Shown: positions 12,850 through 63,880, counted from the first letter of the stretch. The stretch is 64,000 bases of DNA from Poseidonia sp. (GCA_049600935.1 JBMYQB010000001.1:14095-78094), one strand, 5' to 3'. Translations and numbers: made by a program. Notes: generated from the sequence alone by a model not told the origin.

Positions 12850-12886
12850 CAAGACTTCTCCTCTAGCCCGTTGGCTGAGGGTGTGC

Positions 12887-13501
12887 TCAAAGCAGGTCAG
12901 CCAGTTCGTCCTTGATGATTTCAACCGCTTCGAGAATCTCGTCTTTGTGACGGGCGCCGGTGATGACCATCTTTCCGGAACCGAAGATGAGACAGACCAC
13001 CTTGGGGTCGTCAAGTCGGTAGATCAGACCGGGGAACTGTTCTGGCTCGTACTCCACCTTGTCAAAGGGCAAGTGGAAGGTCAGGTGGTTGAGGTTGAGT
13101 TTGCGCGGAACGCCTGCTTGTGGCTCGCCGGTGAACTTGTCAACACCGTCGTAGTCTTCTGGGTAGTGAAGGGCGTAGGTGGCGACCATGTTCTGGACTT
13201 CGATGGTGACGTCCTTGAGGTCCCATGTTTCGATACCAGCAGCACGCAAATCCTTGATCATGCGGTCAATACCGGTGTGGATGTTATCCTCGTCCTTACC
13301 ACCAGTGCAGACGGCACGGCCGGAGCGGAACATAAGAATGGCAAGTTTTGGTTCGGTGACACGGTAAACGACACCGGGGAATTGCTCGGGCTCGTACTCA
13401 CAGTTGAGTTGGATGGCAATGTCGGGGAGGTCAAGTTCTTCGGCAACACGGGTGCTGGCGACAACGTTCACAACAGTTAGGCGTTCTTCATCGGTGGTCA
13501 T
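12887..13501 (-). CDS. tbp: TATA-box binding protein
   Basis: Two direct repeats, each with EYEPEQFPG(V/L)(V/I)YR and F.SG....TG. Start at the ATG at 13501 (MTTDEERLTVVNVVAS), 12 nt inside the listed TTG ORF start. Confidence 0.93.
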   Translation of the reverse strand: MTTDEERLTVVNVVASTRVAEELDLPDIAIQLNCEYEPEQFPGVVYRVTEPKLAILMFRSGRAVCTGGKDEDNIHTGIDRMIKDLRAAGIETWDLKDVTIEVQNMVATYALHYPEDYDGVDKFTGEPQAGVPRKLNLNHLTFHLPFDKVEYEPEQFPGLIYRLDDPKVVCLIFGSGKMVITGARHKDEILEAVEIIKDELADLL

Positions 13502-49403: not shown

Positions 49404-49505
49404 GGATTCTTCTCGGATGGTCGCCTCTAAAGGAATTGCTTTGCAAAATGATACACTTTTTGGGTGTTTTTCACCAGTTTAGGCCTTTCATGCGTCGTTT
49501 ATGCA

Positions 49506-49567
49506 CTTTGAATAATTTAGCCCGCACCTTGGGTATTTCAACCCTGAACCACCGATTCTTTGAATAA
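49506..49567 (+). promoter_or_regulatory. AT-rich divergent promoter region with a 10-nt direct repeat CTTTGAATAA (49506..49515 and 49558..49567)
   Basis: The second copy is centred about 27 nt upstream of the ATG at 49590, which is the spacing of an archaeal TATA element for a leaderless transcript. The repeat spacing is 52 nt. Confidence 0.4.
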
Positions 49568-49589
49568 CTGGCAGAGCACAGAGTGACCC

Positions 49590-50027
49590 ATGGTCGGTGC
49601 GCGAATGTCTCGTAAGGCGCGTCGTCATTTCAAAAAAATACAGCGAGCAGAGAGCAAATACACGCTCCAGGAAATCGCAAGCGCCATCCAAACCGACCTC
49701 GACAAGCGACACTTGAGCTACGACGAGGCGCTCATGCTGGGCAACATGATACAAAACCGTGCGGATCAAGTGCCGGGCGACTCCATCGTCTACGCCATTT
49801 CCGACCGTGACGCCTATCGCCGCACGCTGGAATTGTATCTTCGAGATGCCTTGCTCACCCGAACAGAACAACTTCTCCTGTGGGAAGAGCGTCGCCGACT
49901 CGGCATTTCCGATGCCGAACACGAGGCCCTGCTCAATCAACTGCTCGCTCAATGGCAACGACAGGGCAAGTCCGTCACCATTGACCGATTCAAGAAGCCA
50001 GAGAAAGGAGGTGCGGAACCTGTCTAA
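49590..50027 (+). CDS. Small basic helical protein with an HTH-like segment, first gene of the archaellum-associated gene string
   Basis: MSRKARRHFKKIQRAESKYTLQEIASAIQTDLDKRHLS has a basic arm plus an HTH-like xTLQEIAxxI pattern. Its 3' end overlaps the next gene by 17 nt. Confidence 0.55.
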   Translation: MVGARMSRKARRHFKKIQRAESKYTLQEIASAIQTDLDKRHLSYDEALMLGNMIQNRADQVPGDSIVYAISDRDAYRRTLELYLRDALLTRTEQLLLWEERRRLGISDAEHEALLNQLLAQWQRQGKSVTIDRFKKPEKGGAEPV

Positions 50028-53000
50028 GCCCACCGTCCCCCTTGCCTTGGTCGCCCTGATGTTGGTTGCAAGCCTCACACCCCTTGCCGTGGCCGACAGC
50101 GGGCGCTCAACCCCCGATTTCGTCGTGACGTCCTTCACGCTTGGCGATGCGGGTTCCATGAACCTCGGTGCAGGAATTGAGGTCGAGGACGCCACCCACA
50201 TCGTTCGGGTTCAGGTGCAGAACATCGGACTCGCTGCAGGCCAGGCCAGCCTCACCCTTCTCCTCCAAGGAACCTCTTCGTCAGGCGATGTGGTTTTGGA
50301 CAGCACCGACCTTGGTGTGATTGGTGCAGGCCAATCAAGTGCGGTCACGGTCTTTTCCTGGTCTGCAACGCTCGGCAACAATCAGATTCTCAAAGCTCGC
50401 ATCACCTCAACCACGGACATCAACACCAACAACAACGAAGACCAACTCATCGTCAACGTGAGCCGCTACCAAGACAGTGCAGTATCGAGCCACGACCTTC
50501 CCGTGCCTTCTGGTGGTGGAAGCAGCGTGGTATGGTCGCCTATCGTACACGATTTCACCGTCAACGTCGTCAATACGGGCGTGAAGAATCAATCCGCTCA
50601 ATTCTGGCTGAACTTTACCGAAGTCGGCAACCCAAGCAACACGTTCTCGCAACAATCGGAAATTGTCAGCGTCGTCCGTCCGGGCTCGTTGCATGCTGGT
50701 GGCGCGACTCCGTATCCCGTGGAAATGGAATTTGATGCCACGTCCATCGCTGGTCAGTGGGACGTCATCGGCGAGATGCACGTTGAGGGCATTGCTTCTT
50801 GGGCAGACAGCATAGAATTCCTCAACCAAACGGTGGTCTTTTCATCGTTTGATTTTGAACTGACGGCCGCTCACGACCGCAGCGTTGAACCCGGGCAAAC
50901 CACGCAACTGACCTTCTCTGTCAAAAACACAGGTGTAAGCGTTGACAGCTACAACATCGCTGCATCGAGCGCTTCGGGTTGGATCACGAGCGTCAGCCCA
51001 ACGACAACAACTCCGACGGCGATGCCAGGAAGCACGGAGTACGTGTTTGTCGCCGTCACGGTGCCCGCAACGGCTCAGCGAGATGACGCCGATTTGATCA
51101 CCTTCACCCTGACATCTTCCAGCGACAGCCTCATCACCAGGACCGTTTCAACCGCTGTCCTTGCTGGCGAATCGTACAACGTCAGCATCGTCATGGACAG
51201 TGATATCAAAGACCTCACGCCAGGTCAAGCCTTCCCGCTTCAGGTCAACATCACCAACGACGGCAACGCCGATTCGGTGTTCCTGCTCTCCGGTGGCATC
51301 TCTTCAAACCCTCTCAACTGGGACCTGGAATTCTCAAGCGCTTACACGGGCATCCTTGAACCCGGTGAATCCGTCAACGTGACGCTCACGGTTACACCTC
51401 CCGTCATCAAGAACCCGCTCGTTGAAGCAGAATCCAACGGACACGGGGATACGCTTTCCGTTTGGGCCCAAGCCGTCTCGGCTGATGGGGGCGTACCCAA
51501 GGTGGATTCAACGCCGGTTCAAATTCTTCCCGTGATCGTGGTCGACCCCGGCCTGCCTACGAACGTCATCGACATGACGGTGGAACAAGTTCAGCAGGCT
51601 CAACTCGGTCAAGGCCTCCAAGAAATTCTCGATTTGGAGGTTGAGGTCCGGCACAACTTGGCAACAGAACTCAGCGAAACAGTGGACACCACGCTCACAC
51701 TCGGTACGCCCGTGTTCACCTCAGATTCCTCAGGAGGCTTTGACGAAGCCAACCGTTGGGCCATTGGATTGACGCCTTCGTTTATTCCTGACATGACCTT
51801 GGGCGAAACCAGTCAAGCCGTGATGACCATTCAGGGTCCGGCCGACAATTATTCCGTGGCCGGTTCCTTGAGCATCCCTCTCACGGCCACGCCCACGCTC
51901 GGCGCAGCACACACCAGTTCCAACGTGATTCCAACGGCCATCACGCAATCCCTCGTGATCAACGTCCCTCCGGTGTTGGATGCTGTGGGTCATAACGGGA
52001 CGATACTCGATGCGATGGTCGGAGAGAAAACAGATTTCGAGATCGACATTGCCAACACCGGCAACAACATGACCTCGTACCGTCTTTCGTTGACCGACGG
52101 CGTCCCCGACGGATGGGATGTTTCGTTCTCAACCTCCAGCATCATGCCGTCGACGACGGTCATCGATGTCCCTGCAGATGTTGCCAACCACCCGTCGAAT
52201 GAAACGGACCACATCGTGAAATTCCCGCTTTCGGTCACCACCGACCCCATGGCTCCTGCAAACAGCATTGAAACCATCACCATCGAAGTTCGGGAGATGA
52301 GCACGGGAATTTACATCACCACCTTTGATGTCCCTGTCAAGGTCGGCGAGAAGGTCAATGCGTCGGTTTCTCCAACGAGCCAGACGGTGAATTTGTCCAT
52401 CGGCGACACCATCACCACCAGCATCATCATCAGCAACGATGGAAATACACCAGCGCTCTTCGGCGTCTATCTCGACACCTCAAACGCAGGCGAAATTGAC
52501 TTCACGCTCGAGACCCCAACCGTTGTACAAATCGGCGCGGGCTACGAATCCACCGTCCGCGTTCGCATGACGCCCACAGCCGACGCTCTTGCCGCTGCCA
52601 ATTACTATGCTACGGTTTGGGTGTCCAACGCCGATTCGGGACTCAATCTCTCTGCCAACATCCTTGGAAATATCAGTGAACAACACGGCATGGTTTTGAG
52701 CTCACTTGACGAGATTGGGGTCGTTCCAGGGGAATCGCAAACGGTGGATTTCTCCCTCGTCAACAACGGCAATCTTGTTGAAAACGTCGTCATCGAAACG
52801 AGCGTTGCGGATAATTGGAGCGTCACCCCAGCAAGTATTCCACTCACCCTCGACGTGGGTGAGACCTACTCGAGCACGTTTGATGTGGACGTTCCCTCGC
52901 TTGGCGACGATGACAGTATGCTGAACGGGGCCATCTATCCTGTCACCATGCGCGTCCTCAACGCCACGACACAGGATGAATTGGAAGTGCACCGCTTCAA

Positions 53001-54930
53001 CCTCATCGTTGCACCGCTGTTCATCGTCGAGGTCGAGGATTGGCCGAGTTCCATGGATTATCACCGCGGCATCAGCAGGGACTGGGACGTCCGCCTCATC
53101 AACACCGGGAACAAGGACGTGGAAGTCAACATCAACTACACGCTCCTTCAAGGCGGGCTGACCACGCCCAGTACGGATTGGGAAATCTCAAACGATGCTC
53201 CGTCGACCTTGTTGTTGCGAAGAGGCATTCCAGAAGACCTGACCTTTACCGTCAGAAGCGTGGCTATCGAACCACCGTTGACGTTGGTCGCCAACCTCGT
53301 GGTCACCCTTGAGCCTGTGGAAGAAGCCGTTCAGGGAAGTGCAGAGTACTACACTGACTTGCGAATGAACCGATTCTTTGAGCAAGGCGATACGGCGGTC
53401 TCACCACCAGCCGATAACGGGGCCCAAACCTTCCCCATCACCTATTCCCACATCCCGGTTGGACCTGAAAGCGCTGTGGCCTATGAACTGGAACTTTGTC
53501 GTGCCGAGCGACTGTTGGATGTTGGCGATTTGGGCCAAAACGCCTCGTTCTACGAGTGGTCGTTTGCTGTTCGGGTTGACAACACCGACTACCCCCTCAA
53601 CATGTCCGCCTATTGCGGTTCCACCTCCCTTGGAGCTGACTCGAGAATCACGCTTCCAAGTCGACAACCGTGGGTCACCAGCGATCCAATTCAGTTGATC
53701 ATTGACGCACCCAACACGCCCTACATCCTGTCCGGTGACGGTTGGGACCTAACCTTCCGTTTGTATCACCCCGATGAAAACATCGGCTACACCGTTTACG
53801 AAGAGGACACGTTCACCTACCAACTGGCCGTCTTTGCCAATCCGGCAATTATTGCCCAAGGCCCTGCCGAACCCGACGCCTTCCTCGAAGGCGTGGACAC
53901 CACCTACACCGTGACCGTTCAGAACCTCGGCACGGCCCAAGCACTCGGTGTATCGGCAGCGCTGGATTGCCACGGTGATGTTGACATTCTTTCAACACCT
54001 GAGATGCATCCATTACTCGCCTCAACCGAATCGCACACCTTCACGTGGGATGTCCGACCGAAGACCATCGACTGGTGGGAAGTTGACAAGGACATTCTGT
54101 GCGATGCTTCGCTGTCCTACCTCTACGTTGGCCCGGGCAATGACGAAAGCAACGATAACTCTGCGAGCCTCCGTGAATCAGGTCAAGAACTGGGCGTCGA
54201 GACGGTACAGTCCTGGTCGCCCGACCTTTCCATTGCGTTCATTGCTTGTGTGGTTGCCGCCCTCCTTTCGTTTATCTTTGTCCGCTTGGCCAGCCAGTCC
54301 GAAAAGTGGCAACTCGGCGGTGTGTATGCTGGTGTTCTCGCCTTCGGATTTGCTTTCCATCTGTTCACCGTCCAATATTGGGGTCCCGCCGTACTTACAC
54401 TCTGTGGCCTGTGGATTTGGCGCATGACGTGGAAGAGCAGCGACGAGTTCCGCCTGATACACGAGGATTACCAGCGGGCTCGAAAGGGCGTTTCAACCGT
54501 GTATTCCGACCATTTCGAAGCCCTGAAGGACAGTCGTCGACAGCTGACCATCATTCTGTCCATCCCCGTTTTGGGCATGCTGGCCATCGTACTCGGGCTT
54601 CCTCCGCAACTTTCCACCGACACCGACAACCTCGTGGCCATGGTCTCGTATTTCCTTATCATCATGATTGGCGTATGGTTCCTGCTGAAGCGGTCGGACA
54701 AGATGTACGGAAACCTCTACGGTCGCATGACGGATGCAGAAATCAAGTCGATTCGCATCGAGCGAGACCTTGGTGATCCTGCCCGTCTGTTGAACGACCT
54801 CGCCGATGACGGCCTTGACTTTACAGCGATTCTGGGTGAGGATGCACCTGAACCAGCGGAAGAACCCGCAAAGGCGCCAGCGGGTGACCTTGATTTCTCA
54901 ACAACCTCGGAGGTGGAAAGCGATGTCTGA
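50011..54930 (+). CDS. Giant (~1,640 aa) surface protein with about nine CARDB/NEW3-like beta-sandwich modules and a C-terminal five-helix membrane domain (COG1470-like)
   Basis: GTG at 50011 is preceded by AGGAG and gives the signal VRNLSKPTVPLALVALMLVASLTPLAVADSG. Recurrent (V/I)xNxGN modules (VKNTGVSVDSY, ITNDGNADSVF, IANTGNNMTSYRLSL..VPDGWDVSFS, ISNDGNTPALF, LVNNGNLVENV, LINTGNKDVEV, VQNLGTAQAL). Five hydrophobic helices between about 54225 and 54700. Confidence 0.8.
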   Translation: MRNLSKPTVPLALVALMLVASLTPLAVADSGRSTPDFVVTSFTLGDAGSMNLGAGIEVEDATHIVRVQVQNIGLAAGQASLTLLLQGTSSSGDVVLDSTDLGVIGAGQSSAVTVFSWSATLGNNQILKARITSTTDINTNNNEDQLIVNVSRYQDSAVSSHDLPVPSGGGSSVVWSPIVHDFTVNVVNTGVKNQSAQFWLNFTEVGNPSNTFSQQSEIVSVVRPGSLHAGGATPYPVEMEFDATSIAGQWDVIGEMHVEGIASWADSIEFLNQTVVFSSFDFELTAAHDRSVEPGQTTQLTFSVKNTGVSVDSYNIAASSASGWITSVSPTTTTPTAMPGSTEYVFVAVTVPATAQRDDADLITFTLTSSSDSLITRTVSTAVLAGESYNVSIVMDSDIKDLTPGQAFPLQVNITNDGNADSVFLLSGGISSNPLNWDLEFSSAYTGILEPGESVNVTLTVTPPVIKNPLVEAESNGHGDTLSVWAQAVSADGGVPKVDSTPVQILPVIVVDPGLPTNVIDMTVEQVQQAQLGQGLQEILDLEVEVRHNLATELSETVDTTLTLGTPVFTSDSSGGFDEANRWAIGLTPSFIPDMTLGETSQAVMTIQGPADNYSVAGSLSIPLTATPTLGAAHTSSNVIPTAITQSLVINVPPVLDAVGHNGTILDAMVGEKTDFEIDIANTGNNMTSYRLSLTDGVPDGWDVSFSTSSIMPSTTVIDVPADVANHPSNETDHIVKFPLSVTTDPMAPANSIETITIEVREMSTGIYITTFDVPVKVGEKVNASVSPTSQTVNLSIGDTITTSIIISNDGNTPALFGVYLDTSNAGEIDFTLETPTVVQIGAGYESTVRVRMTPTADALAAANYYATVWVSNADSGLNLSANILGNISEQHGMVLSSLDEIGVVPGESQTVDFSLVNNGNLVENVVIETSVADNWSVTPASIPLTLDVGETYSSTFDVDVPSLGDDDSMLNGAIYPVTMRVLNATTQDELEVHRFNLIVAPLFIVEVEDWPSSMDYHRGISRDWDVRLINTGNKDVEVNINYTLLQGGLTTPSTDWEISNDAPSTLLLRRGIPEDLTFTVRSVAIEPPLTLVANLVVTLEPVEEAVQGSAEYYTDLRMNRFFEQGDTAVSPPADNGAQTFPITYSHIPVGPESAVAYELELCRAERLLDVGDLGQNASFYEWSFAVRVDNTDYPLNMSAYCGSTSLGADSRITLPSRQPWVTSDPIQLIIDAPNTPYILSGDGWDLTFRLYHPDENIGYTVYEEDTFTYQLAVFANPAIIAQGPAEPDAFLEGVDTTYTVTVQNLGTAQALGVSAALDCHGDVDILSTPEMHPLLASTESHTFTWDVRPKTIDWWEVDKDILCDASLSYLYVGPGNDESNDNSASLRESGQELGVETVQSWSPDLSIAFIACVVAALLSFIFVRLASQSEKWQLGGVYAGVLAFGFAFHLFTVQYWGPAVLTLCGLWIWRMTWKSSDEFRLIHEDYQRARKGVSTVYSDHFEALKDSRRQLTIILSIPVLGMLAIVLGLPPQLSTDTDNLVAMVSYFLIIMIGVWFLLKRSDKMYGNLYGRMTDAEIKSIRIERDLGDPARLLNDLADDGLDFTAILGEDAPEPAEEPAKAPAGDLDFSTTSEVESDV

Positions 54931-55870
54931 TGATGTTGACAATGTCCCCGAAGATGTCCGCCGTGAGGACAGGGCCTTGAGGGAGCAAGGTATTCTTGAA
55001 GCATCGCAAACCTTGGAGCGTATCGCTCGACAAGCCGCCAAGCGCGAGAATCCTTCGCTTGCTGAAACCGACATGGACTTGGGAGAAGTCAAGGTTCACT
55101 TGAGCCTGCACCAACTCGGCAGGGCACGGAAGACGCTCAAGCGAGCCGAGCGCACTCTCGAGGAACTTGAGGAAGACGTCCTTCACCTGCGACGCAGCAT
55201 TGCCATGCTCCATCGCCTGTTGGTCCACAAGCATATTTCTCTTGAAGAAGCCGAGCGAATTCTCTACAAGTTGCGTGAAGCCACCGCTGCAGCCGAAATC
55301 GGCGACATCCGGGCTTCGACCGACGAGGTCGAGGATTTGCTCGAGGACATGATCGGTGGCAACACCTCAACCCTCAATCCGTTCCTCTTCCGTCATTTCT
55401 GGATGGGCGTGGACACCCGCTGGCCTGCCGGAGGCGAAACGGGCGTCCTCCTCGTACGCATCATCAACGACGGCCCCATTCCTATGCCCATGCTTCGCCT
55501 CAAACCTCCAGTCCCCGAGGGATGGACGGCCAACCCCCCCAACGTCGACCTGCCCATCATCGCCCCGGGCGGAAACATTCCGCTTCGCTTTGACATCCAA
55601 CCGGACTACCGTCTTTCTTCCGAAGATATTCCGCTGACTCGCAAACTTTCGGTGGCGACTGCCTACGAAATGCGCTCTGGTGAAATCACGGTGACCATGC
55701 GCGTCCAGAATCGCTCGATGGAACCTCTATCCGAAGTGCTGCTCACGCCCTGGATTCCCTCAGGATATTCCACTGACGAAGTTCCGTTCATCCGCAATCT
55801 CGCTCCCGACGAAGTGGCCGTCATCCGCATGCCGCTTCGCATCAACCTCGGTCAAGGAGGTGCTCTTTGA
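54923..55870 (+). CDS. Coiled-coil protein with a C-terminal NEW3/CARDB-like beta-sandwich, no signal peptide
   Basis: The ATG at 54923 overlaps the upstream stop (ATGTCTGA, 8 nt). The N-terminal ~170 aa are heptad-like and charged. The C-terminus reads VLLVRIINDGPIPMPMLRLKPPVPEGWTANPPNVDLPIIAPGGNIPLRFDIQP. Confidence 0.7.
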   Translation: MSDDVDNVPEDVRREDRALREQGILEASQTLERIARQAAKRENPSLAETDMDLGEVKVHLSLHQLGRARKTLKRAERTLEELEEDVLHLRRSIAMLHRLLVHKHISLEEAERILYKLREATAAAEIGDIRASTDEVEDLLEDMIGGNTSTLNPFLFRHFWMGVDTRWPAGGETGVLLVRIINDGPIPMPMLRLKPPVPEGWTANPPNVDLPIIAPGGNIPLRFDIQPDYRLSSEDIPLTRKLSVATAYEMRSGEITVTMRVQNRSMEPLSEVLLTPWIPSGYSTDEVPFIRNLAPDEVAVIRMPLRINLGQGGAL

Positions 55871-55914
55871 CCGCATCCTGTTCCACCCGCAGAGGCGGGG
55901 GAAAAAACAAAAAA

Positions 55915-56529
55915 ATGGTGAAAAACATGAAAAACGAAATGAAGAACGAAAACCGCGATGACCTCGGGGCCATCGGTATTGGTGCAATGATTGTGTTCAT
56001 TGCGCTGATTCTTGTGGCTGCGGTGGCTTCAGCAGTCATTATCCAGACTGCTGAAAAATTGCAACAAAACGCCCAGAGTACGGGTGAAGATACGACGGAC
56101 ATGATGGCCGGAAAGATCTTCATCACCTCGGTCGTTTTGGTGAACGCCCCAACCGCTGGTGCTGCTGCAGATGACCTGTACATCACCTTCGAACTGGCAC
56201 CTGGGTCTGACCCCATCGATCCTGTCGATGTTGAGTACAACCTCATCTGCCTGGAAACCGGGGCTCGAACGGGTGCAGCAACCCAGTCCGGAAACTTCGG
56301 AACGGTCGCTGGTATCACTGCCACGGCTGCTTCGGCACTCGGAACCGCTGGTGCAGCTGACCCGCTCAACCCTGCAGTGACCTACACTGTGACGCTGACG
56401 CCCACGGGCGACTGTGCTCCACAGGTCAACACCGACGACACGTTCGTTATCCAAGCCGGAGGCGGCGGATTCACGTACGAGATCTTCAAATACGGCGGTG
56501 GCATTGATCCCGGTGAGGTGGTCGTTTGA
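55915..56529 (+). CDS. arlB1: Archaellin (archaeal flagellin) 1
   Basis: Class III signal plus the conserved hydrophobic N-terminus DLG/AIGIGAMIVFIALILVAAVASAVIIQTAEKLQQNAQSTG. In-frame alternative ATGs at 55927 and 55939. Confidence 0.92.
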   Translation: MVKNMKNEMKNENRDDLGAIGIGAMIVFIALILVAAVASAVIIQTAEKLQQNAQSTGEDTTDMMAGKIFITSVVLVNAPTAGAAADDLYITFELAPGSDPIDPVDVEYNLICLETGARTGAATQSGNFGTVAGITATAASALGTAGAADPLNPAVTYTVTLTPTGDCAPQVNTDDTFVIQAGGGGFTYEIFKYGGGIDPGEVVV

Positions 56530-56552
56530 AGACCAACAACCAACACTCCTCA

Positions 56553-57092
56553 ATGGAAGATGACAAATTCGCAGCCATCGGTATTGGCGCCATGATCGTG
56601 TTCATTGCACTGATCCTTGTCGCTGCTGTCGCTGCTGCCGTCATCATTCAGACCGCAGAAAAACTCCAACAGAACGCCCAGTCCACGGGTGATGACACCT
56701 CGCAATCCATGAACGGTAAGATCATGGTCAGCACGGTCGTTGCAGGAACCGGTGCAGCAACGGATTACGAAATCTATGCTCGCTTGGCCCCTGGTAGCGA
56801 ACCGCTTGCCACCGACCAAATCTTCTACCAAATCATCTGTGAGAACAGTGCAACACCCATCGAAGGCTCTGACCCAATCGTTGACGAAATGGACCAGACC
56901 AACGCCGACATTGATACCATTCTGCCCAGTATGCCCGTGATGATCACCATCCCAGGCGCAGGTTGTGCACCAAACGCTGCAAACAACCTCAACACGGGTG
57001 TGCAATTGTACATCCATGCTGGTGGCGGTGGCACGTCCTTCGAGACGCTGAACATCCCTGCTCAGGTTGACCCAGGCACGCCATTGATCTGA
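56553..57092 (+). CDS. arlB2: Archaellin (archaeal flagellin) 2
   Basis: MEDDKFA/AIGIGAMIVFIALILVAAVAAAVIIQTAEKLQQNAQSTG. The listed ORF begins at a TTG at 56526 that overlaps the arlB1 stop. Confidence 0.92.
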   Translation: MEDDKFAAIGIGAMIVFIALILVAAVAAAVIIQTAEKLQQNAQSTGDDTSQSMNGKIMVSTVVAGTGAATDYEIYARLAPGSEPLATDQIFYQIICENSATPIEGSDPIVDEMDQTNADIDTILPSMPVMITIPGAGCAPNAANNLNTGVQLYIHAGGGGTSFETLNIPAQVDPGTPLI

Positions 57093-57134
57093 TGTTTGAA
57101 ACGAGTTCTCTCGTTTCAATATGGAGGAATATCA

Positions 57135-57995
57135 ATGGCATGGCCATTTAGTGGGAATTCCGGTGGAAGCAAAAGCGCAGACCAAGCATTGAGTGAAGAG
57201 CGCCTGAAGATTTTGGCCAACGTGGCCATTGAACAGGTGCCTTTTCCCGAACAGGGGATGCTCTCTGAAGAGGATGCGTGGACGATTTCACCTGGACCGA
57301 CCCGAGCTCGGATTAACAGTCAGCAAAGTGTGCCGAATGTGGCCGCCACGCTCGCACCTGCAGCAGCTCCTGCTCCTGCAGTCTCTGCAACGGTGGACAC
57401 CTCTGGTCTTGAACGGCTCATCAGCAGCCGTCTTGACATGGTCGAGGATGTCCTTCGCATGGTTGAACACCGACTTGATGAAGGTGTATCCGTAAGCGAA
57501 TCGTCTGCAGACGAAGGCGAAGGCGAATACGAAGATGACGAAGAAGGAAGCGAAGACGGGTCCACCGGAGACCGCATCATCACAGCCAGTGGTGAAGTGG
57601 TCGAAGTCGGCGGTACTGCTCGCATGATGGAAGACGACCAAGGGCAACTCGTGGAACTCTACGAGGCACAAGCCTTGGCGGCGAACCCTTTCTTGGTCGC
57701 TCCGCGCTCAAGCGGCTCCGGAAACGGACAGTCAAGCACAGGTGCACCAACCGTGGCTGCACTGTTGCTGGACCACATGTCCGGTATGGCTGCGGTGAGT
57801 TTCACCCAGAAAGCCATGGAGTCCGGTATGCTGACGCAAGAAGAAGGCGATGCAGTGCTAGCGATTGTACAACTTGCTGAACCTGGCGACCCTGAAACCG
57901 CTTTGGAAGACCATTTGCCCCACCGACAATTGTTGGTGTTCTCCGCATTGGTCTCCTCGTGGCGTCAACTTCACATGCTACGAGGTGAAGAGTGA
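57135..57995 (+). CDS. Acidic hypothetical protein at the operon position normally held by FlaC/D/E (ArlC/D/E)
   Basis: ATG preceded by GGAGG. Ala/Pro-rich segment, an acidic run SADEGEGEYEDDEEGSEDGS, and a helical C-terminus. No confident FlaD/E motif recognised. Confidence 0.6.
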   Translation: MAWPFSGNSGGSKSADQALSEERLKILANVAIEQVPFPEQGMLSEEDAWTISPGPTRARINSQQSVPNVAATLAPAAAPAPAVSATVDTSGLERLISSRLDMVEDVLRMVEHRLDEGVSVSESSADEGEGEYEDDEEGSEDGSTGDRIITASGEVVEVGGTARMMEDDQGQLVELYEAQALAANPFLVAPRSSGSGNGQSSTGAPTVAALLLDHMSGMAAVSFTQKAMESGMLTQEEGDAVLAIVQLAEPGDPETALEDHLPHRQLLVFSALVSSWRQLHMLRGEE

Positions 57996-57996
57996 C

Positions 57997-58647
57997 ATGG
58001 GTGCATCGGTTGGTGTTGGCGGATTGATCATCGGCATTTCGATGCTGGTGGTGTTTTCCATGGCCTATCAGGCCATTTCTTTGCAGGTTGATTCTGGTAT
58101 AGACCGAATCGACGATGCAGCAAATGAACCTACACCAACCTTCACCATTGACGATGCAATCATCTACACGGGTGCCATCGTGGATGTCACCATCAACGAC
58201 GGTGGTTCAGGATACAGCAGCGGCGGAACAATCGAAGCATCAGGCGGTACTGGCGGCTTTTCGGCAACGTACACAGTCAACGGGAATGGAAACATTACGT
58301 CCGTGGTCATCACCAGCCACGGCAATTATTCTTCGCTTCCAACCCTGGTTGTGAACGGTGGCGGAACACCGACAGCGACGGCGAGTTTCACAGCTGTCCG
58401 CGGCAGTGTGGTATACGCAAACATGACGAATACGGGCTCAACGACCATCGACCACGACGACATGTGGTTGTACCTCGACGGTCGGAACGCTACGCAATTT
58501 TCATCAGCGTATGTATCGCAAATCAATTCTGAACTCTGGTTCTCAGGAGAATCGCTCAGCCTTCGGTGGTTTGACACCGGGCTACCAGGCGATGAACGAC
58601 TGGCCCTTGCGGTGGGTTCCACCATCGTTGGGCACGCATTGTGGTGA
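57997..58647 (+). CDS. arlF: Archaellum assembly protein FlaF/ArlF-like, with an inserted Gly/Ser/Thr-rich module
   Basis: N-terminal MGASVGVGGLIIGISMLVVFSMAY (FlaF-type helix). Beta-sandwich motif VVYANMTNTGSTTIDHDDMWLYLDG. Operon position before arlG. Confidence 0.7.
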   Translation: MGASVGVGGLIIGISMLVVFSMAYQAISLQVDSGIDRIDDAANEPTPTFTIDDAIIYTGAIVDVTINDGGSGYSSGGTIEASGGTGGFSATYTVNGNGNITSVVITSHGNYSSLPTLVVNGGGTPTATASFTAVRGSVVYANMTNTGSTTIDHDDMWLYLDGRNATQFSSAYVSQINSELWFSGESLSLRWFDTGLPGDERLALAVGSTIVGHALW

Positions 58648-58651
58648 TGAA

Positions 58652-59140
58652 ATGGCGGATGGAGGTGCTTCTTCGATGATTATGCTCGTAACCGGGCTTT
58701 TGATTTCTGGAAGCGCCAGCGTCATTTTGATTGCCGAATGGAGCGATATGGTCCGAGTTGCGGCACTCAACGAGCGGTCACAATCCGACAAGGACGAAAT
58801 CGGTGTCGCCATCAGTGGCGATCATGCGATGGTTACCTACGACGCTTCGGCAGGAGAAATCACCCTGTTCCTCGTCAACACTGGCGAGCATGAGTTAAAC
58901 ACTACGAACTACGAGTTCTTGGTTGACGGTGAAGCGCCCACCTCGGTTTCAGGCACCGTTCTTCCCACCGGGACAGATTGGTTGCCTGGGTACTTGACGG
59001 AAGTCGTTTTGACAGACACGAATTGGAATTACGCCGATGGCGACGACATCTCTGTGTTCTTTGTTGGCACATCTGAGCCTGTTAACGGCATTGTTCACAC
59101 CGTCACCACCAATGCGGAGGTGAGGTTGAATGGCGTTTGA
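58652..59140 (+). CDS. arlG: Archaellum assembly protein FlaG/ArlG-like
   Basis: N-terminal helix SSMIMLVTGLLISGSASVILIA. Motif ITLFLVNTGEHELNTTNYEFLVDGE. Operon position between arlF and arlH. Confidence 0.7.
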   Translation: MADGGASSMIMLVTGLLISGSASVILIAEWSDMVRVAALNERSQSDKDEIGVAISGDHAMVTYDASAGEITLFLVNTGEHELNTTNYEFLVDGEAPTSVSGTVLPTGTDWLPGYLTEVVLTDTNWNYADGDDISVFFVGTSEPVNGIVHTVTTNAEVRLNGV

Positions 59141-59864
59141 TGACAACCCGTTTATGACGGCTCACAAACCCGTTGAGGACGGATTCCCCTTTGTGGTGGA
59201 GACGGATTCGCTTGCTGACTCCATGGGGCTACGATTGCCAAACCGTTCGTTGTACTTGCTTCAAGGAAAGGTCGGTGCGGGCAAATCCCTCATTGCTCAG
59301 CGGCTCATTCACGGCATGGTCCACAACGGCGTCAAGGTGCTCGTCATCACGACAGAGTTGACCACTCGTGGTTGGGTCGAACAAATGGAGAGCATCGGAT
59401 ACGGCATGACCGAGGCCATGCGCAAGGGCCAAGTCATGGTCATGAGCAGGTACGGTACCATTGCCGATTCTCGCCACGACGTGAGCCTTCAGGAGGTCTT
59501 GAGCAGCCCAGCCATCCCAGCAGCCGACGTGATTGTCCTGGACTCTGCCAGTTCACTGATGCCAGAAGAAGGCACAAAAGCCGACCATTATGCCCTGATA
59601 CAACAACTTCGAAAAATCGCTTCCGACGGTCGCTCGTTCATGCTTTGCGCGGACCCTGAAGAGATGGATGAAACACTGCTTCACACCCTTCGGGCATCAG
59701 CCGAAGTGGTGCTTGATTTGGATAACGCCATGATCGGTGGAGAACTCAAGCGCAACATCATCATCACCCGTTTCCTTCGAGCAGCTGGCCCGATTCAAAC
59801 ATCAATTGGATGGCGTGTTGAGCCCGGCATGGGCTTCATCGTGGACATCACGGCGGTAAGCTAG
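59130..59864 (+). CDS. arlH: Archaellum KaiC-like ATPase FlaH/ArlH
   Basis: Walker A LLQGKVGAGKSLIAQRL. Walker B VIVLDS. Overlaps the arlG stop by 11 nt. Confidence 0.88.
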   Translation: MAFDDNPFMTAHKPVEDGFPFVVETDSLADSMGLRLPNRSLYLLQGKVGAGKSLIAQRLIHGMVHNGVKVLVITTELTTRGWVEQMESIGYGMTEAMRKGQVMVMSRYGTIADSRHDVSLQEVLSSPAIPAADVIVLDSASSLMPEEGTKADHYALIQQLRKIASDGRSFMLCADPEEMDETLLHTLRASAEVVLDLDNAMIGGELKRNIIITRFLRAAGPIQTSIGWRVEPGMGFIVDITAVS

Positions 59865-59876
59865 GGGGGGAGATGA

Positions 59877-61592
59877 ATGAGTGACGAGCCACGTTTCCAA
59901 AAGGGCGACCTCAACGGCGTCATGGCTGCCTATCCGCACGTTGCGGAGTGGGTGCGTGATTTCGAGATGCGGTACGGTTCTCGCCCCATCTACTACGGTC
60001 CCCTTGATAGAGATGCCAAAAAGCAACGCCCTCTCAATTTGATTTACGTTACTCGCGAACCAATCTTCGTCCACATTTACGAACCACCCGCTGACGATGA
60101 CGGTGGTGGTACCATTCTCTGGTTCGGACTGGAACCTCAACTCACCGAAGAAGAGGAAAACATTCGCCGTGAACTTGTGGAAACGCTCCTTCAGGAAGCG
60201 CCCACGGCCCCGTCATTTACCACGGATAACGAATTTGAAAATATCCTTGGTCAAATGATTGAGCGGTACACCATTCTGGATTCAGAAGCCAACAACCTCG
60301 TTCGCCGCCAAGGACGCTTGTGGGAGATGGTTGGTATGGACGACAAACGATTGACGGTGACTCAAGCCCAACGGGAACGTCTCAACTATGTCGTGATTCG
60401 AGACCTTATTCGAAATGGACCGCTCGAGCCCCTGTTGTCTGACGAGATGTTGGAAGACATACACTCGGTGGGTCTCAAGCACATCCACATGGACCACAAG
60501 GTGTTTGGAATGGTCACCTCCAACATCCGATTTCGAGAACGAGAATTGCTCTCTCGGTACCTGCGTGCCATGTCCGAGCGTATCGGACGTCCTGTTTCGG
60601 ACAACAAACCCATCATCGACGGTGTGCTGCTTGATGGTTCTCGTATCAATATCATTTTCTCCGACGATGTCTCCATGCTTGGACCGTCGTTCACCATCCG
60701 TAAATTCGCAGAAGAGACCATCTCGGTTATTCAACTCATCAAATGGGGCACCATGTCGGCCCAGCAAGCCGCCTACATCTGGATTTGTCTCGAATACGGA
60801 ATGTCCGTCCTGGTGTCTGGAGAAACAGCATCCGGAAAGACCACGACGCTCAACGCCATCTTACCGTTCATTGATCACAACGTGAAGATTTACTCGGCAG
60901 AAGACACACCTGAAGTGAAGGTCCGCCACAAAATCTGGCAGCGACTGGTCACTCGCGATGCCAAGAACGAAGACTCGCGTGTTGAGATGTTTGACCTGCT
61001 CAAAGCAGCACTTCGAAGCCGTCCTCGATACATCATCATCGGTGAAATCCGTGGTGTCGAAGGAGCGACGGCGTTCCAAGCCATGCAGACCGGCCACCCG
61101 GTTATTGCGACCTTCCACGCATCGTCCATCGTCAAGATGATTCAGCGTTTCACTGGTGATCCGATCAACGTCCCAATTCGGTTCTTTGACAACCTCAACT
61201 TCGCCATCTTTCAAGAAGTCGTTGAGGCACCAGGCGGCGGTATCGCCCGTCGTATCACCGGTATTGACGAGGTCATCGGCTACAACAAACACAGCGACGG
61301 TGTGCTTACCCGTGGCATGTTCGAATGGGACCCCGTTAAAGACAAGCACTACTTCCGTGGTATGTTCCAATCCCACTTGCTGGAAAACAAAATCGCCGCC
61401 ATGGCAGGGTTTGCAAACAAGCGTGACATCTACGACGAAATGCTGCGCCGTGCCGACGCCATTCAACGGATGGCCGACCGCGACTTGACCCACTACGATG
61501 ACGTGTTTGACCTGCTTGGCCTGTACTATTCCAACGGTTGGGACCACTTTAGCCGAGCCATTGACACCTGGGTCGGGGTCAACCACAACTGA
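59877..61592 (+). CDS. arlI: Archaellum motor ATPase FlaI/ArlI (type II/IV secretion ATPase family)
   Basis: Walker A VLVSGETASGKTTTLNAI. Asp/His boxes (PRYIIIGEIRGVEGATAFQAMQTGHPVIATFHA). 571 aa. Confidence 0.95.
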   Translation: MSDEPRFQKGDLNGVMAAYPHVAEWVRDFEMRYGSRPIYYGPLDRDAKKQRPLNLIYVTREPIFVHIYEPPADDDGGGTILWFGLEPQLTEEEENIRRELVETLLQEAPTAPSFTTDNEFENILGQMIERYTILDSEANNLVRRQGRLWEMVGMDDKRLTVTQAQRERLNYVVIRDLIRNGPLEPLLSDEMLEDIHSVGLKHIHMDHKVFGMVTSNIRFRERELLSRYLRAMSERIGRPVSDNKPIIDGVLLDGSRINIIFSDDVSMLGPSFTIRKFAEETISVIQLIKWGTMSAQQAAYIWICLEYGMSVLVSGETASGKTTTLNAILPFIDHNVKIYSAEDTPEVKVRHKIWQRLVTRDAKNEDSRVEMFDLLKAALRSRPRYIIIGEIRGVEGATAFQAMQTGHPVIATFHASSIVKMIQRFTGDPINVPIRFFDNLNFAIFQEVVEAPGGGIARRITGIDEVIGYNKHSDGVLTRGMFEWDPVKDKHYFRGMFQSHLLENKIAAMAGFANKRDIYDEMLRRADAIQRMADRDLTHYDDVFDLLGLYYSNGWDHFSRAIDTWVGVNHN

Positions 61593-61604
61593 GGATGATG
61601 AGAC

Positions 61605-63407
61605 ATGGAGCGCATGCCGATTTGGCAAATCGCCCTGCGTCGGCTGGAAATGCCCGTTCCTCGCTTTCTCACCCTCTATGTCGCACCCATCGTTGTGGCG
61701 ACCTTTTTCATCGCCATCATCGTTGTTTTCCTAACCGGTGGTTTGGCAGAAGGAGCGCTCTTTGCTGGATTCACAGGTGTCCTTTTCGTTCTCCTACTCA
61801 CCGCCATGTCAACACTTGCCGCAGTGGCCTTTCCTTTGCTTGAAGTCCAGCGCTCAGCCACGCTAATTGAAGAAGAAATGCACATGTTCATCACGCGCAT
61901 GGGCATTTTGTCGATTGGAGAAGTGGGCGCTCAGTCCATCTTTGACATTCTCAAACAAATGCGAGATTACGGTGAATTGGCTTCAGAGGTGAAGCGTATT
62001 GAGACACTGGTTGACAAGTGGCATACTTCGCTCCCCGAAGCGGCCCGTATCGTTGCCCACCAAAGCCCCAGTCCGCTTTGGTCAGATTTCCTTGACCGGA
62101 TGGCCTTTTCCATCGAGGCTGGACAACCCATTGACGAGTTCATGCGCTCAGAGCAAGAAACCGTCGCCGAGCAATACAATACGCTCTATGACACCCGCTT
62201 GGAATCCGTGGATACGCTGAAGGAAATTTATGTCTCGCTCACCACAGCCGGTCTTTTCGGTTTGGTCATTGCTGGCATTCACCTCGTTCTCTTTGAAGTG
62301 GGTGGCGTTAACGATACGCCAATCGAAGTCGCCAGTCGACTGCGGTTTTTGCTGTTAGCATCACTGGTGTTTTTGTTCATTCAAGTGGTGGCAGTTTTTG
62401 CTTTCCGTGCGACCATTCCCAAGGATGCTACCTTTGCTCGAGACGAAATGGACACACCGTTCCGAATTAATTTCCGTCGCTCGTTGTTGCTTTCGGGGGC
62501 TGTTTCCCTCGGACTTGTGGTGTTGGCAACGTTCACGCTCATTTGGACATGGGAGGTCATCACCTCGCAATGGGATAAATACGGCCTCTTGTTCATTGCC
62601 GTGCCATTTTCCCCCTTGCTCATCCCTGCGTTGATGGTCCGACGAGAAGAAAATCAAATTCAACGGCGCGATGAGACGTATCCCGATTTCATACGTGCAC
62701 TGGGTGGAACTGCACAAGCACGTTCGGCTGAGCCTTCGGCCACCATCAAGGCCCTACGAGGGATTGATTTTGGTATGCTGGACAACTCAATTGACCGTCT
62801 GGAAAAGCGACTCTCCACTCGTATTGATTCCGACCGAGCGTGGGATTACTTCACGGCAGACACCAACTCCGCCGTTATTTCCCGTTACACCCGTATCTAC
62901 ATCGAAGGGTCCCAATCCTCCGGCCAGCCTGCTGGAACCGCTGAAATGGTTTCGAGGAGCGTCGGAAACCTCCTATCGTTGCGAAACCGCCGCTCTCTTT
63001 CCGCCAATACCATGTGGGGTGTAGCTCTTGGTCTGTTAATTTCAAGCGTCGCATCGCTCAATGTCACCACCGCCATTGTTCTCCAATTGGGGGAAGCCAT
63101 TGCAGGTGTGGCCAGCGGTTTGGTCGACACGGATGTGAGCATGCTCACGGAGTTTGCAGGAGGCATCGCACTCCCGGTGATGGAGGATGCATCATCGGTC
63201 GAGGACAACATTCGAATGTTCAAAATCATCATCTCGTTGTTGATATTGATGCAGGTGGTGGCCGTTTCATCCATCGCAACGCGACTGCGAGGTGGTACGC
63301 GAATGAGTGCCGTAGGGCAGATGATTCAACTCACCTGGGTCGCCGGCCTGGCCTCATTTTTCACCGCCATCGTTCTCGACCAGGCAAGCAGCATCTTCAG
63401 TGTTTGA
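61605..63407 (+). CDS. arlJ: Archaellum polytopic membrane platform protein FlaJ/ArlJ
   Basis: 600 aa with multiple TM helices flanking two soluble T2SS-F-like domains. Position immediately after arlI. Confidence 0.88.
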   Translation: MERMPIWQIALRRLEMPVPRFLTLYVAPIVVATFFIAIIVVFLTGGLAEGALFAGFTGVLFVLLLTAMSTLAAVAFPLLEVQRSATLIEEEMHMFITRMGILSIGEVGAQSIFDILKQMRDYGELASEVKRIETLVDKWHTSLPEAARIVAHQSPSPLWSDFLDRMAFSIEAGQPIDEFMRSEQETVAEQYNTLYDTRLESVDTLKEIYVSLTTAGLFGLVIAGIHLVLFEVGGVNDTPIEVASRLRFLLLASLVFLFIQVVAVFAFRATIPKDATFARDEMDTPFRINFRRSLLLSGAVSLGLVVLATFTLIWTWEVITSQWDKYGLLFIAVPFSPLLIPALMVRREENQIQRRDETYPDFIRALGGTAQARSAEPSATIKALRGIDFGMLDNSIDRLEKRLSTRIDSDRAWDYFTADTNSAVISRYTRIYIEGSQSSGQPAGTAEMVSRSVGNLLSLRNRRSLSANTMWGVALGLLISSVASLNVTTAIVLQLGEAIAGVASGLVDTDVSMLTEFAGGIALPVMEDASSVEDNIRMFKIIISLLILMQVVAVSSIATRLRGGTRMSAVGQMIQLTWVAGLASFFTAIVLDQASSIFSV

Positions 63408-63880
63408 TGCTTGGGAACATTCATACTCCCGCTCACCCAGTTTCAACCATGCAAGCCCCGCTCCCGCCCCCGCCAGCAGCAGCCTCACCCTACCAGCCTC
63501 CAGCAGCCAGCATGGCAAAAGGGAGCATGTACACTTTCCAAAAATGGTTGATGATCGGTGCAGCCCTCCTGGTGTTTGCCACCGTCTTTGCTCAATTTCC
63601 GCTCTCGTCTTCGGAGCCCAACATTACCGACTACGACCTCGCTGACGAGAAAGAGGCTCAACAATACCTCGATGACGTGGACGGCTATGAGGGGCAAGTG
63701 GCCCTCTTTGGTGCCATGGCCACGATTCTTCAAACGGGTGCGCTGACCCTGTTGGCCTATGCCTTCTTCCGTGAGGCCCAGGAAGATGAAGGGCAACACG
63801 TGGCGGTTCGCATCACGATGATATTGGCTGGTATCATTCTGGTCACCAGCATCGTCGGTCGGAGCTTTTCCCTCTTCTGA
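63407..63880 (+). CDS. Small membrane protein (Pro-rich N-terminus, 3 predicted TM helices), last gene of the arl string
   Basis: The ATG shares one base with the arlJ stop (TGATG). MQAPLPPPPAAASPYQPPAAS, then WLMIGAALLVFATVFAQF, VALFGAMATILQTGALTLLAYAFF and ITMILAGIILVTSIVG. Alternative internal ATGs are possible. Confidence 0.55.
   Translation: MLGNIHTPAHPVSTMQAPLPPPPAAASPYQPPAASMAKGSMYTFQKWLMIGAALLVFATVFAQFPLSSSEPNITDYDLADEKEAQQYLDDVDGYEGQVALFGAMATILQTGALTLLAYAFFREAQEDEGQHVAVRITMILAGIILVTSIVGRSFSLF

Follow-up and report, generated by a model that had tools for sequence, protein, structure and literature searches.

Genes for a giant envelope protein and a predicted cytoplasmic coiled-coil partner form an order-wide conserved pair at the front of the archaellum operon of Poseidoniales

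In Sulfolobus and Pyrococcus, ArlF and ArlG reportedly form the stator of the archaellum, with anchoring to the surface layer (S-layer). Around and beneath the ArlH/I/J motor are lineage-specific cytoplasmic coiled-coil or ring proteins, namely ArlX in Crenarchaeota and ArlC/D/E in Euryarchaeota, and the euryarchaeal "polar cap" is uncharacterised. Bacterial flagella likewise possess lineage-specific scaffolds that brace the stator, as exemplified by the PflA/PflB/FlgP disks of Campylobacter and the H and T rings of Vibrio. The uncultured Poseidoniales outnumber all other planktonic archaea in surface seawater, and it is debated whether their archaella serve for swimming or for particle attachment. 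Here, we analyzed a 64,000-nucleotide (nt) stretch of DNA from Poseidonia sp. (GCA_049600935.1 JBMYQB010000001.1:14095-78094), hereafter the window, in which an initial annotation had proposed a three-gene module fused to the front of the archaellum (arl) operon. These genes are referred to below as A, B and C.

The cluster spans positions 49590-63880 of the window and comprises 12 tightly packed genes, all on the plus strand, in the order A-B-C-arlB1-arlB2-X299-arlF-G-H-I-J followed by a gene for a small membrane protein. Gene B (50011-54930) encodes a giant envelope protein of 1639 amino acids (aa) and gene C (54923-55870) a protein of 315 aa, the start of which overlaps the B stop codon by 8 nt (ATGTCTGA). 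Genes A and B overlap by 17 nt, conditional on B starting at GTG 50011. The gap between C and arlB1 measures 44 nt to ATG 55915 or 56 nt to ATG 55927, the latter being the ATG behind a conserved GGTGA ribosome-binding motif, and all junctions downstream of arlB1 are overlaps or gaps of at most 12 nt. The open reading frame (ORF) map and the sequence therefore reproduce the packing described in the initial annotation, including the strand, the 17-nt and 8-nt overlaps and the 44-nt gap.

When compared with described archaellum components, B shares with ArlF and ArlG an extracytoplasmic location, a membrane anchor, a richness in beta-sandwiches and its place in the arl cluster; ArlF/G reportedly keep the motor stationary against the envelope. 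However, both are small proteins that cross the membrane once and have archaellin-like N-termini, and ArlF/G-like proteins are already present here, whereas B has 1639 aa and five transmembrane (TM) helices and is unrelated to them in sequence; B would add a layer to ArlF/G rather than replace them. C is comparable to ArlX and ArlC/D/E in size and coiled-coil content. Unlike these proteins, which are encoded between arlB and arlF, C is encoded upstream of arlB, is paired with a giant membrane protein and carries an immunoglobulin (Ig)-like NEW3 domain, while lacking both the TM helix of ArlX and any Pfam similarity to FlaC or FlaD-E. The assignment of C as an ArlX was rejected on the basis of its position, the lack of a hydrophobic segment and the lack of a sequence match, and its assignment as an ArlC/D/E protein was rejected as no match to FlaC_arch (PF05377) or Arch_fla_DE was obtained with C or 21 of its relatives. 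With the bacterial flagellar scaffolds, B and C have in common the concept of clade-restricted, envelope-spanning additions encoded with or near the motor genes, but there is no homology, the archaellum motor is ATP-driven and the envelope is different. The B ectodomain is built from the domains of COG1470, NEW3 (PF10633) and CARDB (PF07705) surface proteins, which are generic Ig-like modules and silent on function; a cytoplasmic NEW3-like domain, as in C, and a five-TM base with HEDYQRAR and DPARL motifs, as in B, are not features of the described NEW3/CARDB families. Searches of Pfam, NCBIfam and PDB profiles, as well as Foldseek, returned no match to an unrelated characterised system, which the initial annotation had named as a refuting outcome.

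Because the C family is tiny, with 63 clusters at 50% identity among 1.84 billion representatives in a profile search, eight of which are full-length lineages, C made a good probe for a census of the locus. This comprised 118 loci, i.e., 80 from GTDB species genomes, 30 from metagenome contigs and eight from exact-protein look-ups. The metagenome contigs were retrieved with the most divergent C family members and the GTDB genomes were scanned with a closer set of C proteins; counts are given for loci with enough flanking sequence. The C-terminal region of B was found directly upstream of C in 107/107 loci, an archaellin was present at most 400 nt downstream of C in 101/101, and arlH, arlI and arlJ followed further downstream in 49/49. 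C homologs outside an arl context were never seen, either in the 63-cluster family or in the 118-locus census. The proposed location of B and C at the front of the archaellum operon was thus upheld by strict adjacency on both sides, and homologs, far from being distributed randomly relative to arl operons, were arl-linked at all informative loci.

Gene order of this kind might simply be inherited, in which case B and C would belong to an unrelated envelope system and their proximity to arl genes would have no functional meaning. Within Poseidoniaceae, the upstream genes for AhpC, a hexapeptide transferase and an epimerase are equally syntenic, and synteny in this family therefore proves little. 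The loci of Thalassarchaeaceae (Marine Group (MG) IIb) and other divergent contigs, with GC contents of 0.34-0.65, are decisive because their flanks are replaced, with DNA primase, DUF373 and PolC-DP2 in place of AcnX, epimerase and AhpC, while the B-C-arlB-arlB-X-F-G-H-I-J order is unchanged. This exchange of flanks between families argues against mere inheritance of order, as do the confinement of C homologs to these loci, the overlapping or abutting frames on the same strand, and the 44-nt Poseidoniaceae spacer, which is devoid of terminator or promoter signals. We consider an accidental association very unlikely, and regard some functional link of B and C with the archaellum as highly probable. 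Of the census loci, one contig deposited as "Verrucomicrobiales bacterium isolate ARS100" (NZEQ01000038.1; locus L007) carries a complete Poseidonia A-B-C-arl cluster with a C protein 96% identical to that of the window, and is evidently a mis-binned archaeal contig.

The locus has been depicted previously. Tully et al. 2019 (Nat Commun 10:271, PMC6336850) located operons from flaH/I/J and flagellin genes, with coordinates provided in their Supplementary Table 3, and their "putative MGII motility operon" (Fig. 4) includes A, B and C as black, unannotated "hypothetical proteins"; these authors noted both conserved unannotated proteins and a change in content between MGIIa and MGIIb. Their SAT95 operon (PAJM01000030: 39983-54291, 12 proteins) starts exactly at gene A of our locus L075 and ends after the small ORF behind arlJ, the small protein being the last gene drawn, and their NP65 and NAT37 operons match our loci L034 and L053 in the same way. 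In what amounts to an independent census from the opposite direction, operons of 10-12 proteins whose coordinates begin away from contig ends have lengths of 12.1-14.6 kb in MGIIa and MGIIb.10 and must therefore include the 4.9-kb gene B. Shorter, possibly truncated operons (5.1-9.6 kb, 5-10 proteins) are also listed in that study. In another study, Rinke et al. 2018 (PMC6461757) discussed flaH/I/J only, and favored adhesion over motility because chemotaxis genes are missing in MGII. The bare synteny is hence not new, since an operon boundary had already been drawn around A, B and C (PMC6336850), and the claim of the initial annotation that no described component resembles the three genes holds for their function, but not for the genes themselves, which were part of that motility operon as hypotheticals. 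The published operon and the present one are the same locus, the former being presented without domain architecture, topology, B-C coupling, conservation pattern, a census centered on B and C, or a functional proposal. New here are the recognition of B and C as the conserved unit, with A as a family-specific addition; the domain and topological anatomy of B and C, with the conservation of B concentrated on the cytoplasmic side; and the order-wide census, with the very narrow confinement of the C family to arl contexts and the conserved non-coding elements described below.

With GTG 50011 as its putative start, B possesses a canonical Sec signal peptide (MRNLSKPTVPLALVALMLVASLTPLAVA/DS), followed by an acidic, S/T/D-rich and K-poor ectodomain of approximately 1370 aa. 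Pfam matches well above threshold were obtained to NEW3 (NPCBM_assoc; E=3.9e-22, 78.7 bits, cut-off 24.4) and CARDB (E=2.3e-11, 44.3 bits, cut-off 22.7). Exactly nine [VI]xNxG motifs were counted (residues 69, 186, 304, 414, 680, 807, 916, 1029 and 1303), at a spacing of about 110-125 aa interrupted by two wider gaps of about 270 aa; the gaps could hold some four more divergent domains, which would bring the total to approximately 12-13 Ig-like domains. The protein contains 21 N-glycosylation sequons. Both hydropathy analysis and an AlphaFold2 (AF2) model of residues 1301-1639 placed five TM helices at approximately residues 1401-1561, followed by an acidic tail. The signal peptide, the nine or so beta-sandwich modules, the five helices and the acidic tail had all been claimed in the initial annotation, and each was recovered in our analysis. 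By BLAST, B had no internal repeats and no paralogy to the other giant proteins of the window.

Given an external ectodomain, both the basic TM3-TM4 loop and the C-terminal 80 residues of B are assigned to the cytoplasm, and these parts, together with the membrane helices, are the most conserved. Across 62 Poseidoniaceae orthologs, conservation per 60-residue block was 0.51-0.70 in the ectodomain (mostly 0.55-0.66), when compared with a peak of 0.81 over TM2-TM3 and the cytoplasmic loop and 0.72 over TM4-TM5 and the tail. The loop carries the conserved motif EFRLIHEDYQRARKG..DHF (EFRLIHEDYQRARKGxSTxYxDHF) and the tail YGxLYGRxT..IERDLGDPARLL (YGxLYGRxTxxExxxxRIERDLGDPARLL). Orthologs from Thalassarchaeaceae have the same topology, with recurrence of the IHxD..A..G, DH and LYG motifs, and B proteins from Thalassarchaeaceae and other divergent loci are 1630-1643 aa in length. 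Residues 1390-1639 had no Pfam or NCBIfam match, and a Foldseek search of the PDB with the low-confidence AF2 model of the membrane part yielded no fold or membrane-protein match. The possibility that the membrane domain is an ion-driven stator of the MotA/ExbB/TolQ type was rejected, given that neither a MotA_ExbB domain (Pfam, NCBIfam) nor a Foldseek match was obtained.

The fast evolution of the B ectodomain, which is like that of the archaellins, fits surface exposure, and brings into consideration the main rival to the reading that we favor below, i.e., that B is a surface adhesin or surface-layer element co-regulated with the archaellum, for which C is a cytoplasmic assembly or anchoring partner without contact to the motor. 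On this view, cells that use archaella to attach to particles would expose B simultaneously. Extended arrays of Ig-like CARDB/NEW3 domains that are rich in sequons are characteristic of adhesins and surface glycoproteins, the ectodomain keeps pace with other exposed proteins in its rate of evolution, many such giants are encoded in MGII, and the archaella of this group have been argued to serve adhesion in view of the absence of chemotaxis genes (PMC6461757). This proposal leaves unexplained, however, both why B is most conserved in its cytoplasmic part and why it is always accompanied by a cytoplasmic coiled-coil protein that is itself highly conserved. Moreover, co-regulated but independent genes usually become separated over order-level divergence with rearranged flanks, which was never the case here. 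On balance, we judge an adhesin without motor contact to be unlikely. A role for B as a universal cell-wall (S-layer) protein is indirectly disfavored, as the finding that its obligate neighbor C was never encountered away from arl genes argues against it.

The C protein consists of a variable acidic N-terminus, a helical or coiled-coil half (residues 10-145), a linker and an Ig-like beta-sandwich of the NEW3 type (residues 159-307). These halves were resolved as helices and sandwich, respectively, in an AF2 model based on a 22-sequence alignment (predicted local distance difference test (pLDDT) score of 74), and are joined by the invariant linker GGNTSTLNPFLFRHFW.G.DTRWPAGG. Hydropathy analysis revealed no hydrophobic segment, and there was no signal peptide or TM helix; C is accordingly predicted to be a soluble cytoplasmic partner. 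The window protein matched NEW3 (PF10633) only weakly (E=0.03, 15 bits, below the cut-off of 24.4), while NEW3 matches were obtained for 13/22 members of the C family (best E=4.7e-5). The coiled coil and NEW3-like module without signal peptide proposed in the initial annotation were thereby corroborated, with the qualification that the NEW3 match is weak in the window protein itself. Foldseek on the C model returned only generic Ig/ASH/NEW3 sandwiches, among them alignments of the C sandwich with a NEW3-type domain of 9fyn and with the FixG-related 2r39 (probability 0.99-1.0, with an aligned span of no more than about 100 residues). Further hits in the searches, for example to EzrA and SNARE, were regarded as coiled-coil noise. 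One C homolog is labeled "COG1470 family protein" in UniRef. Identity of C to its homologs was 60-97% within Poseidoniaceae, where C is more conserved than B, and only 25-37% in Thalassarchaeaceae and other divergent loci; the closest relatives (97%) are from metagenome-assembled genomes named Poseidonia sp., Candidatus Poseidoniaceae or Poseidoniales, which places the window in MGIIa. The 8-nt B/C overlap of the window recurs in loci L001 and L088, and the two genes abut directly (0-1 nt) in the loci L084 and L086, a junction from which B and C are predicted to be translationally coupled. The two largest uncharacterised genes of the cluster are an obligate order-wide pair with a clear inside-outside architecture.

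Such an architecture would also suit a transmembrane signaling or control device, in which B senses surface contact or a ligand and C relays this to switch, brake or localise the archaellum, replacing the chemotaxis or ArlCDE input. B does join a large ectodomain to strongly conserved cytoplasmic motifs, the two-domain design of C is adaptor-like, there is no ArlC/D/E in the cluster, and chemotaxis genes are reported to be absent in MGII (PMC6461757). Nevertheless, Pfam and NCBIfam searches identified no kinase, HAMP, receiver, GGDEF or similar domain in A, B or C, and stoichiometric coupling in translation is found more typically between structural partners. A signaling function therefore appears to us to be quite improbable.

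The interpretation that we tentatively favor, while giving it somewhat less than an even chance, is that B and C assemble into a membrane-spanning complex of two proteins, which serves as a lineage-specific integral accessory of the Poseidoniales archaellum, in the manner of a structural anchor or scaffold. We prefer it because the strongest constraint on B is cytoplasmic, because B and C are predicted to be translationally coupled, and because no ArlC/D/E, ArlX or ring protein is recognisable. Indeed, no ArlC/D/E or ArlX family member was detectable in the cluster using Pfam and NCBIfam, which formally leaves the position of anchor or ring unfilled unless the unannotated X299 occupies it. In the proposed complex, the Ig-repeat ectodomain of B would be exposed outside the cell, with the five-helix base presenting cytoplasmic motifs; the conserved cytoplasmic loop and tail of B would bind C, and C would oligomerise via its helical half beneath the membrane. 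The motor, with ArlF/G outside and ArlH/I/J and X299 inside, would thereby gain a fixed envelope anchor or collar, doing the job performed elsewhere in archaea by S-layer attachment, ArlX/ArlCDE rings or the "polar cap".

Several findings weigh against this interpretation. Neither B nor C resembles a known archaellum, pilus or flagellar component in sequence or fold (Pfam, NCBIfam, PDB profiles, Foldseek). X299 already sits in the slot of arlC/D/E/X and could fill the ring role, and with ArlF/G-like stator proteins present, a further anchor is not obviously needed. MGII encodes many other giant Ig-repeat surface proteins, several of them in the window, and the B ectodomain is not unusual in this regard; nor does its divergence track archaellin type. 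Finally, the C-arlB spacers of Thalassarchaeaceae contain a TATA-like TAATATCATAA, and arlB is there probably transcribable independently of B and C.

A bolder version of the anchor reading, which we regard as rather doubtful, is that B and C represent an unrecognised class of archaellum component, namely an envelope-spanning anchoring collar made up of an ectodomain ring, a five-helix base and an inner coiled-coil/Ig lattice, which would immobilise the ATP-driven motor in an envelope perhaps lacking a conventional S-layer. Such a collar could be the first molecular handle on the euryarchaeal "polar cap" or anchoring problem. Were a structural role to hold true, the archaellum parts list would grow beyond ArlB-J/X/CDE, and archaella would gain clade-specific envelope scaffolds like those of bacterial flagella. 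Were B and C instead an adhesin module, this would support the adhesion hypothesis and supply a cell-surface marker of MGII ecotypes that are motile or attached. Either way, the HEDYQRAR and DPARL motifs of B and the NPFLFRHFW linker of C are concrete targets.

Gene A (49590-50027) encodes a basic protein of 145 aa (26 K+R vs 21 D+E) with an invariant core, VYAISDRDAYRRTLELYLRDALLTRTEQLLLWEERRRLGI. It was present in 61/61 Poseidoniaceae loci, at 72-93% protein identity, a level exceeding that of the neighboring AhpC, and in 0/15 distant loci. The conserved core of the locus is therefore the B-C pair, and the three-gene module of the initial annotation stands for Poseidoniaceae, but not order-wide. 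The description of A as a helix-turn-helix (HTH)-like protein found no support: searches that included 15 orthologs yielded no Pfam, NCBIfam or PDB-profile match, an HTH family match was absent from Pfam and NCBIfam for all 15 in these sequence-based searches, and the best PDB profile (E=0.035) was that of an acetyltransferase. A may nonetheless be a regulator, and would be a Poseidoniaceae-only addition heading the transcription unit behind a conserved promoter-like motif.

This motif, ACCGATTCTTTGAATAACTGGCAG (24 nt, 49551-49574, plus strand), lies 16-39 nt upstream of gene A, in the spacer of 49404-49589. In this area, GC content is lowest in the spacer (0.49 vs 0.55-0.62), confirming the AT-rich intergenic region noted previously. 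The motif is near-invariant in approximately 70 distinct Poseidoniaceae upstream regions, the surrounding spacer being variable, and occurs once in the 64-kb window; a second copy of CTTTGAATAA is present at 49506-49515. ACCGATTCTTTGAATAACTGGCAG is probably the B recognition element (BRE)/TATA promoter of the transcription unit, which would give a very short leader. Further upstream, around 49500-49520, are TTTATGCA..TGAAT elements, and these semi-palindromic ATGCA/TGAAT elements look like an operator. A minus-strand ORF of 237 aa (49488-50201) overlaps the promoter region and the whole of gene A; it is most likely spurious, given the strong conservation of the A protein read from the plus strand.

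Turning to the junction between C and arlB1, the spacer is 37-119 nt long in Poseidoniaceae (mostly 40-90). Inspection of the short Poseidoniaceae spacers revealed no oligo-T terminator, TATA box or recognisable promoter; on the sequence side, the interval 55870-55915, where the initial annotation had named a strong terminator and promoter as a refuting outcome, shows no recognisable sign of either. Just after the C stop codon is an intercistronic hairpin (55882-55902, plus strand; core CCCGC-AGAG-GCGGG, 55886-55899), followed by an A-rich tract and then the GGTGA-N5-7-ATG of arlB1. The hairpin was found in 47/47 distinct Poseidoniaceae spacers, with a variable loop and with compensatory stem changes (CCTGC/GCAGG, CTCGC/GCGAG, CCCTC/GAGGG, CCCAC/GTGGG). 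Per-sequence folding showed the full stem, with a mean minimum free energy of -11.5 kcal/mol vs -4.0 kcal/mol for shuffled sequences; RNAalifold on a MAFFT alignment of the spacers recovered only 3 pairs, owing to the variation in loop length. No Rfam family matched the hairpin or region. Followed by an A-run instead of a T-run, and with T-runs absent, the hairpin cannot be recognised as an archaeal or intrinsic terminator, and it may rather affect the processing or stability of the archaellin mRNA.

Within the last 15 codons of C (55823-55867), synonymous diversity was 0.51, vs approximately 0.85 over the rest of the gene, which suggests an overlapping signal at the nucleotide level. The C-terminal glycines are encoded by GGA GGN in 80/81 orthologs, the exception being GGG GGT (GGGGG), so that GGAGG is near-invariant at 9-13 nt before the stop codon. 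These features of the junction, as far as sequence can indicate, fit read-through transcription with an RNA element setting the fate of the archaellin mRNA. In Thalassarchaeaceae, the spacers are 74-116 nt long and their TATA-like TAATATCATAA, located inside a short palindrome, is probably an arlB promoter or operator; physical co-transcription of B and C with arlB is therefore probably not universal, though their adjacency is. Published expression and transcription start site data (PMC9723583, PMC5069720) held nothing usable for the locus. An N-terminally extended arlB1, starting from a TTG that overlaps the C stop codon (ORF 55867-56529), was rejected because the frame is broken by 1-nt indels in relatives.

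Downstream of the spacer, arlB1 (55915 or 55927 to 56529) and arlB2 (56526-57092) both encode proteins matching the Pfam Arch_flagellin family (PF01917; E=5.6e-19 and E=1.8e-18, respectively), and the archaellin motif DDLG/AIGIGAMIVFIALILVAAV is visible in the sequence. Archaellin identity ranged from 46 to 95% even among genomes with C proteins of 93-97% identity: archaellins at loci L004-L006 were 46-48% identical to those of the window (C, 96-97%), and those at locus L016 were 89-95% identical (C, 93%). This suggests that the archaellins behave like exchangeable cassettes, through recombination or diversifying selection on the filament.

The next gene, X299 (57096-57995), encodes an acidic, unannotated 299-aa protein in the slot usual for arlC/D/E or arlX. 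It is conserved in all loci, with 29-30% identity in Thalassarchaeaceae, and belongs to no Pfam or NCBIfam family, its homologs giving a single sub-threshold FlaC_arch match (E=0.075); we consider it a candidate lineage-specific ring or switch protein. The ArlF-like (58000-58647) and ArlG-like (58649-59140) proteins matched their NCBIfam models below the curated 110-bit cut-off (ArlF, E=2.1e-9, 37.7 bits; ArlG, E=3.8e-14, 53 bits), and their position and size fit. At 215 aa, the ArlF-like protein is long, with a Gly/Ser/Thr-rich insertion that weakly matches the Ig-like Big_13 domain ahead of the ArlF-like C-terminal part. ArlH (59130-59864), ArlI (59877-61592) and ArlJ (61605-63407) of the window are 70-99% identical to their Poseidoniaceae orthologs, and the orthologs at L001 and L084 carry the KaiC-like ATPase (PF06745), T2SSE (PF00437) and T2SSF (PF00482) domains, respectively. 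The window cluster ends with the small membrane protein (63512-63880, alternative starts 63407 and 63449), which has 2-3 TM helices and a weak DUF202 match. In Thalassarchaeaceae, the cluster ends instead with a protein of 328-342 aa (L084:18924-19910, L086:18426-19454) that has a weak match to the A24 peptidase C-terminal domain of archaea and is probably the prearchaellin peptidase ArlK.

Further giant proteins, secreted or membrane-bound, are encoded elsewhere in the window, at 34897-39987 on the plus strand and at 5674-9267, 9319-13014 and 21940-24480 on the minus strand, none of which is a paralog of B. A common C-terminal motif, TGLPEGWTMEQW..YG.QWL, is present in the proteins of 5674-9267 and 9319-13014.

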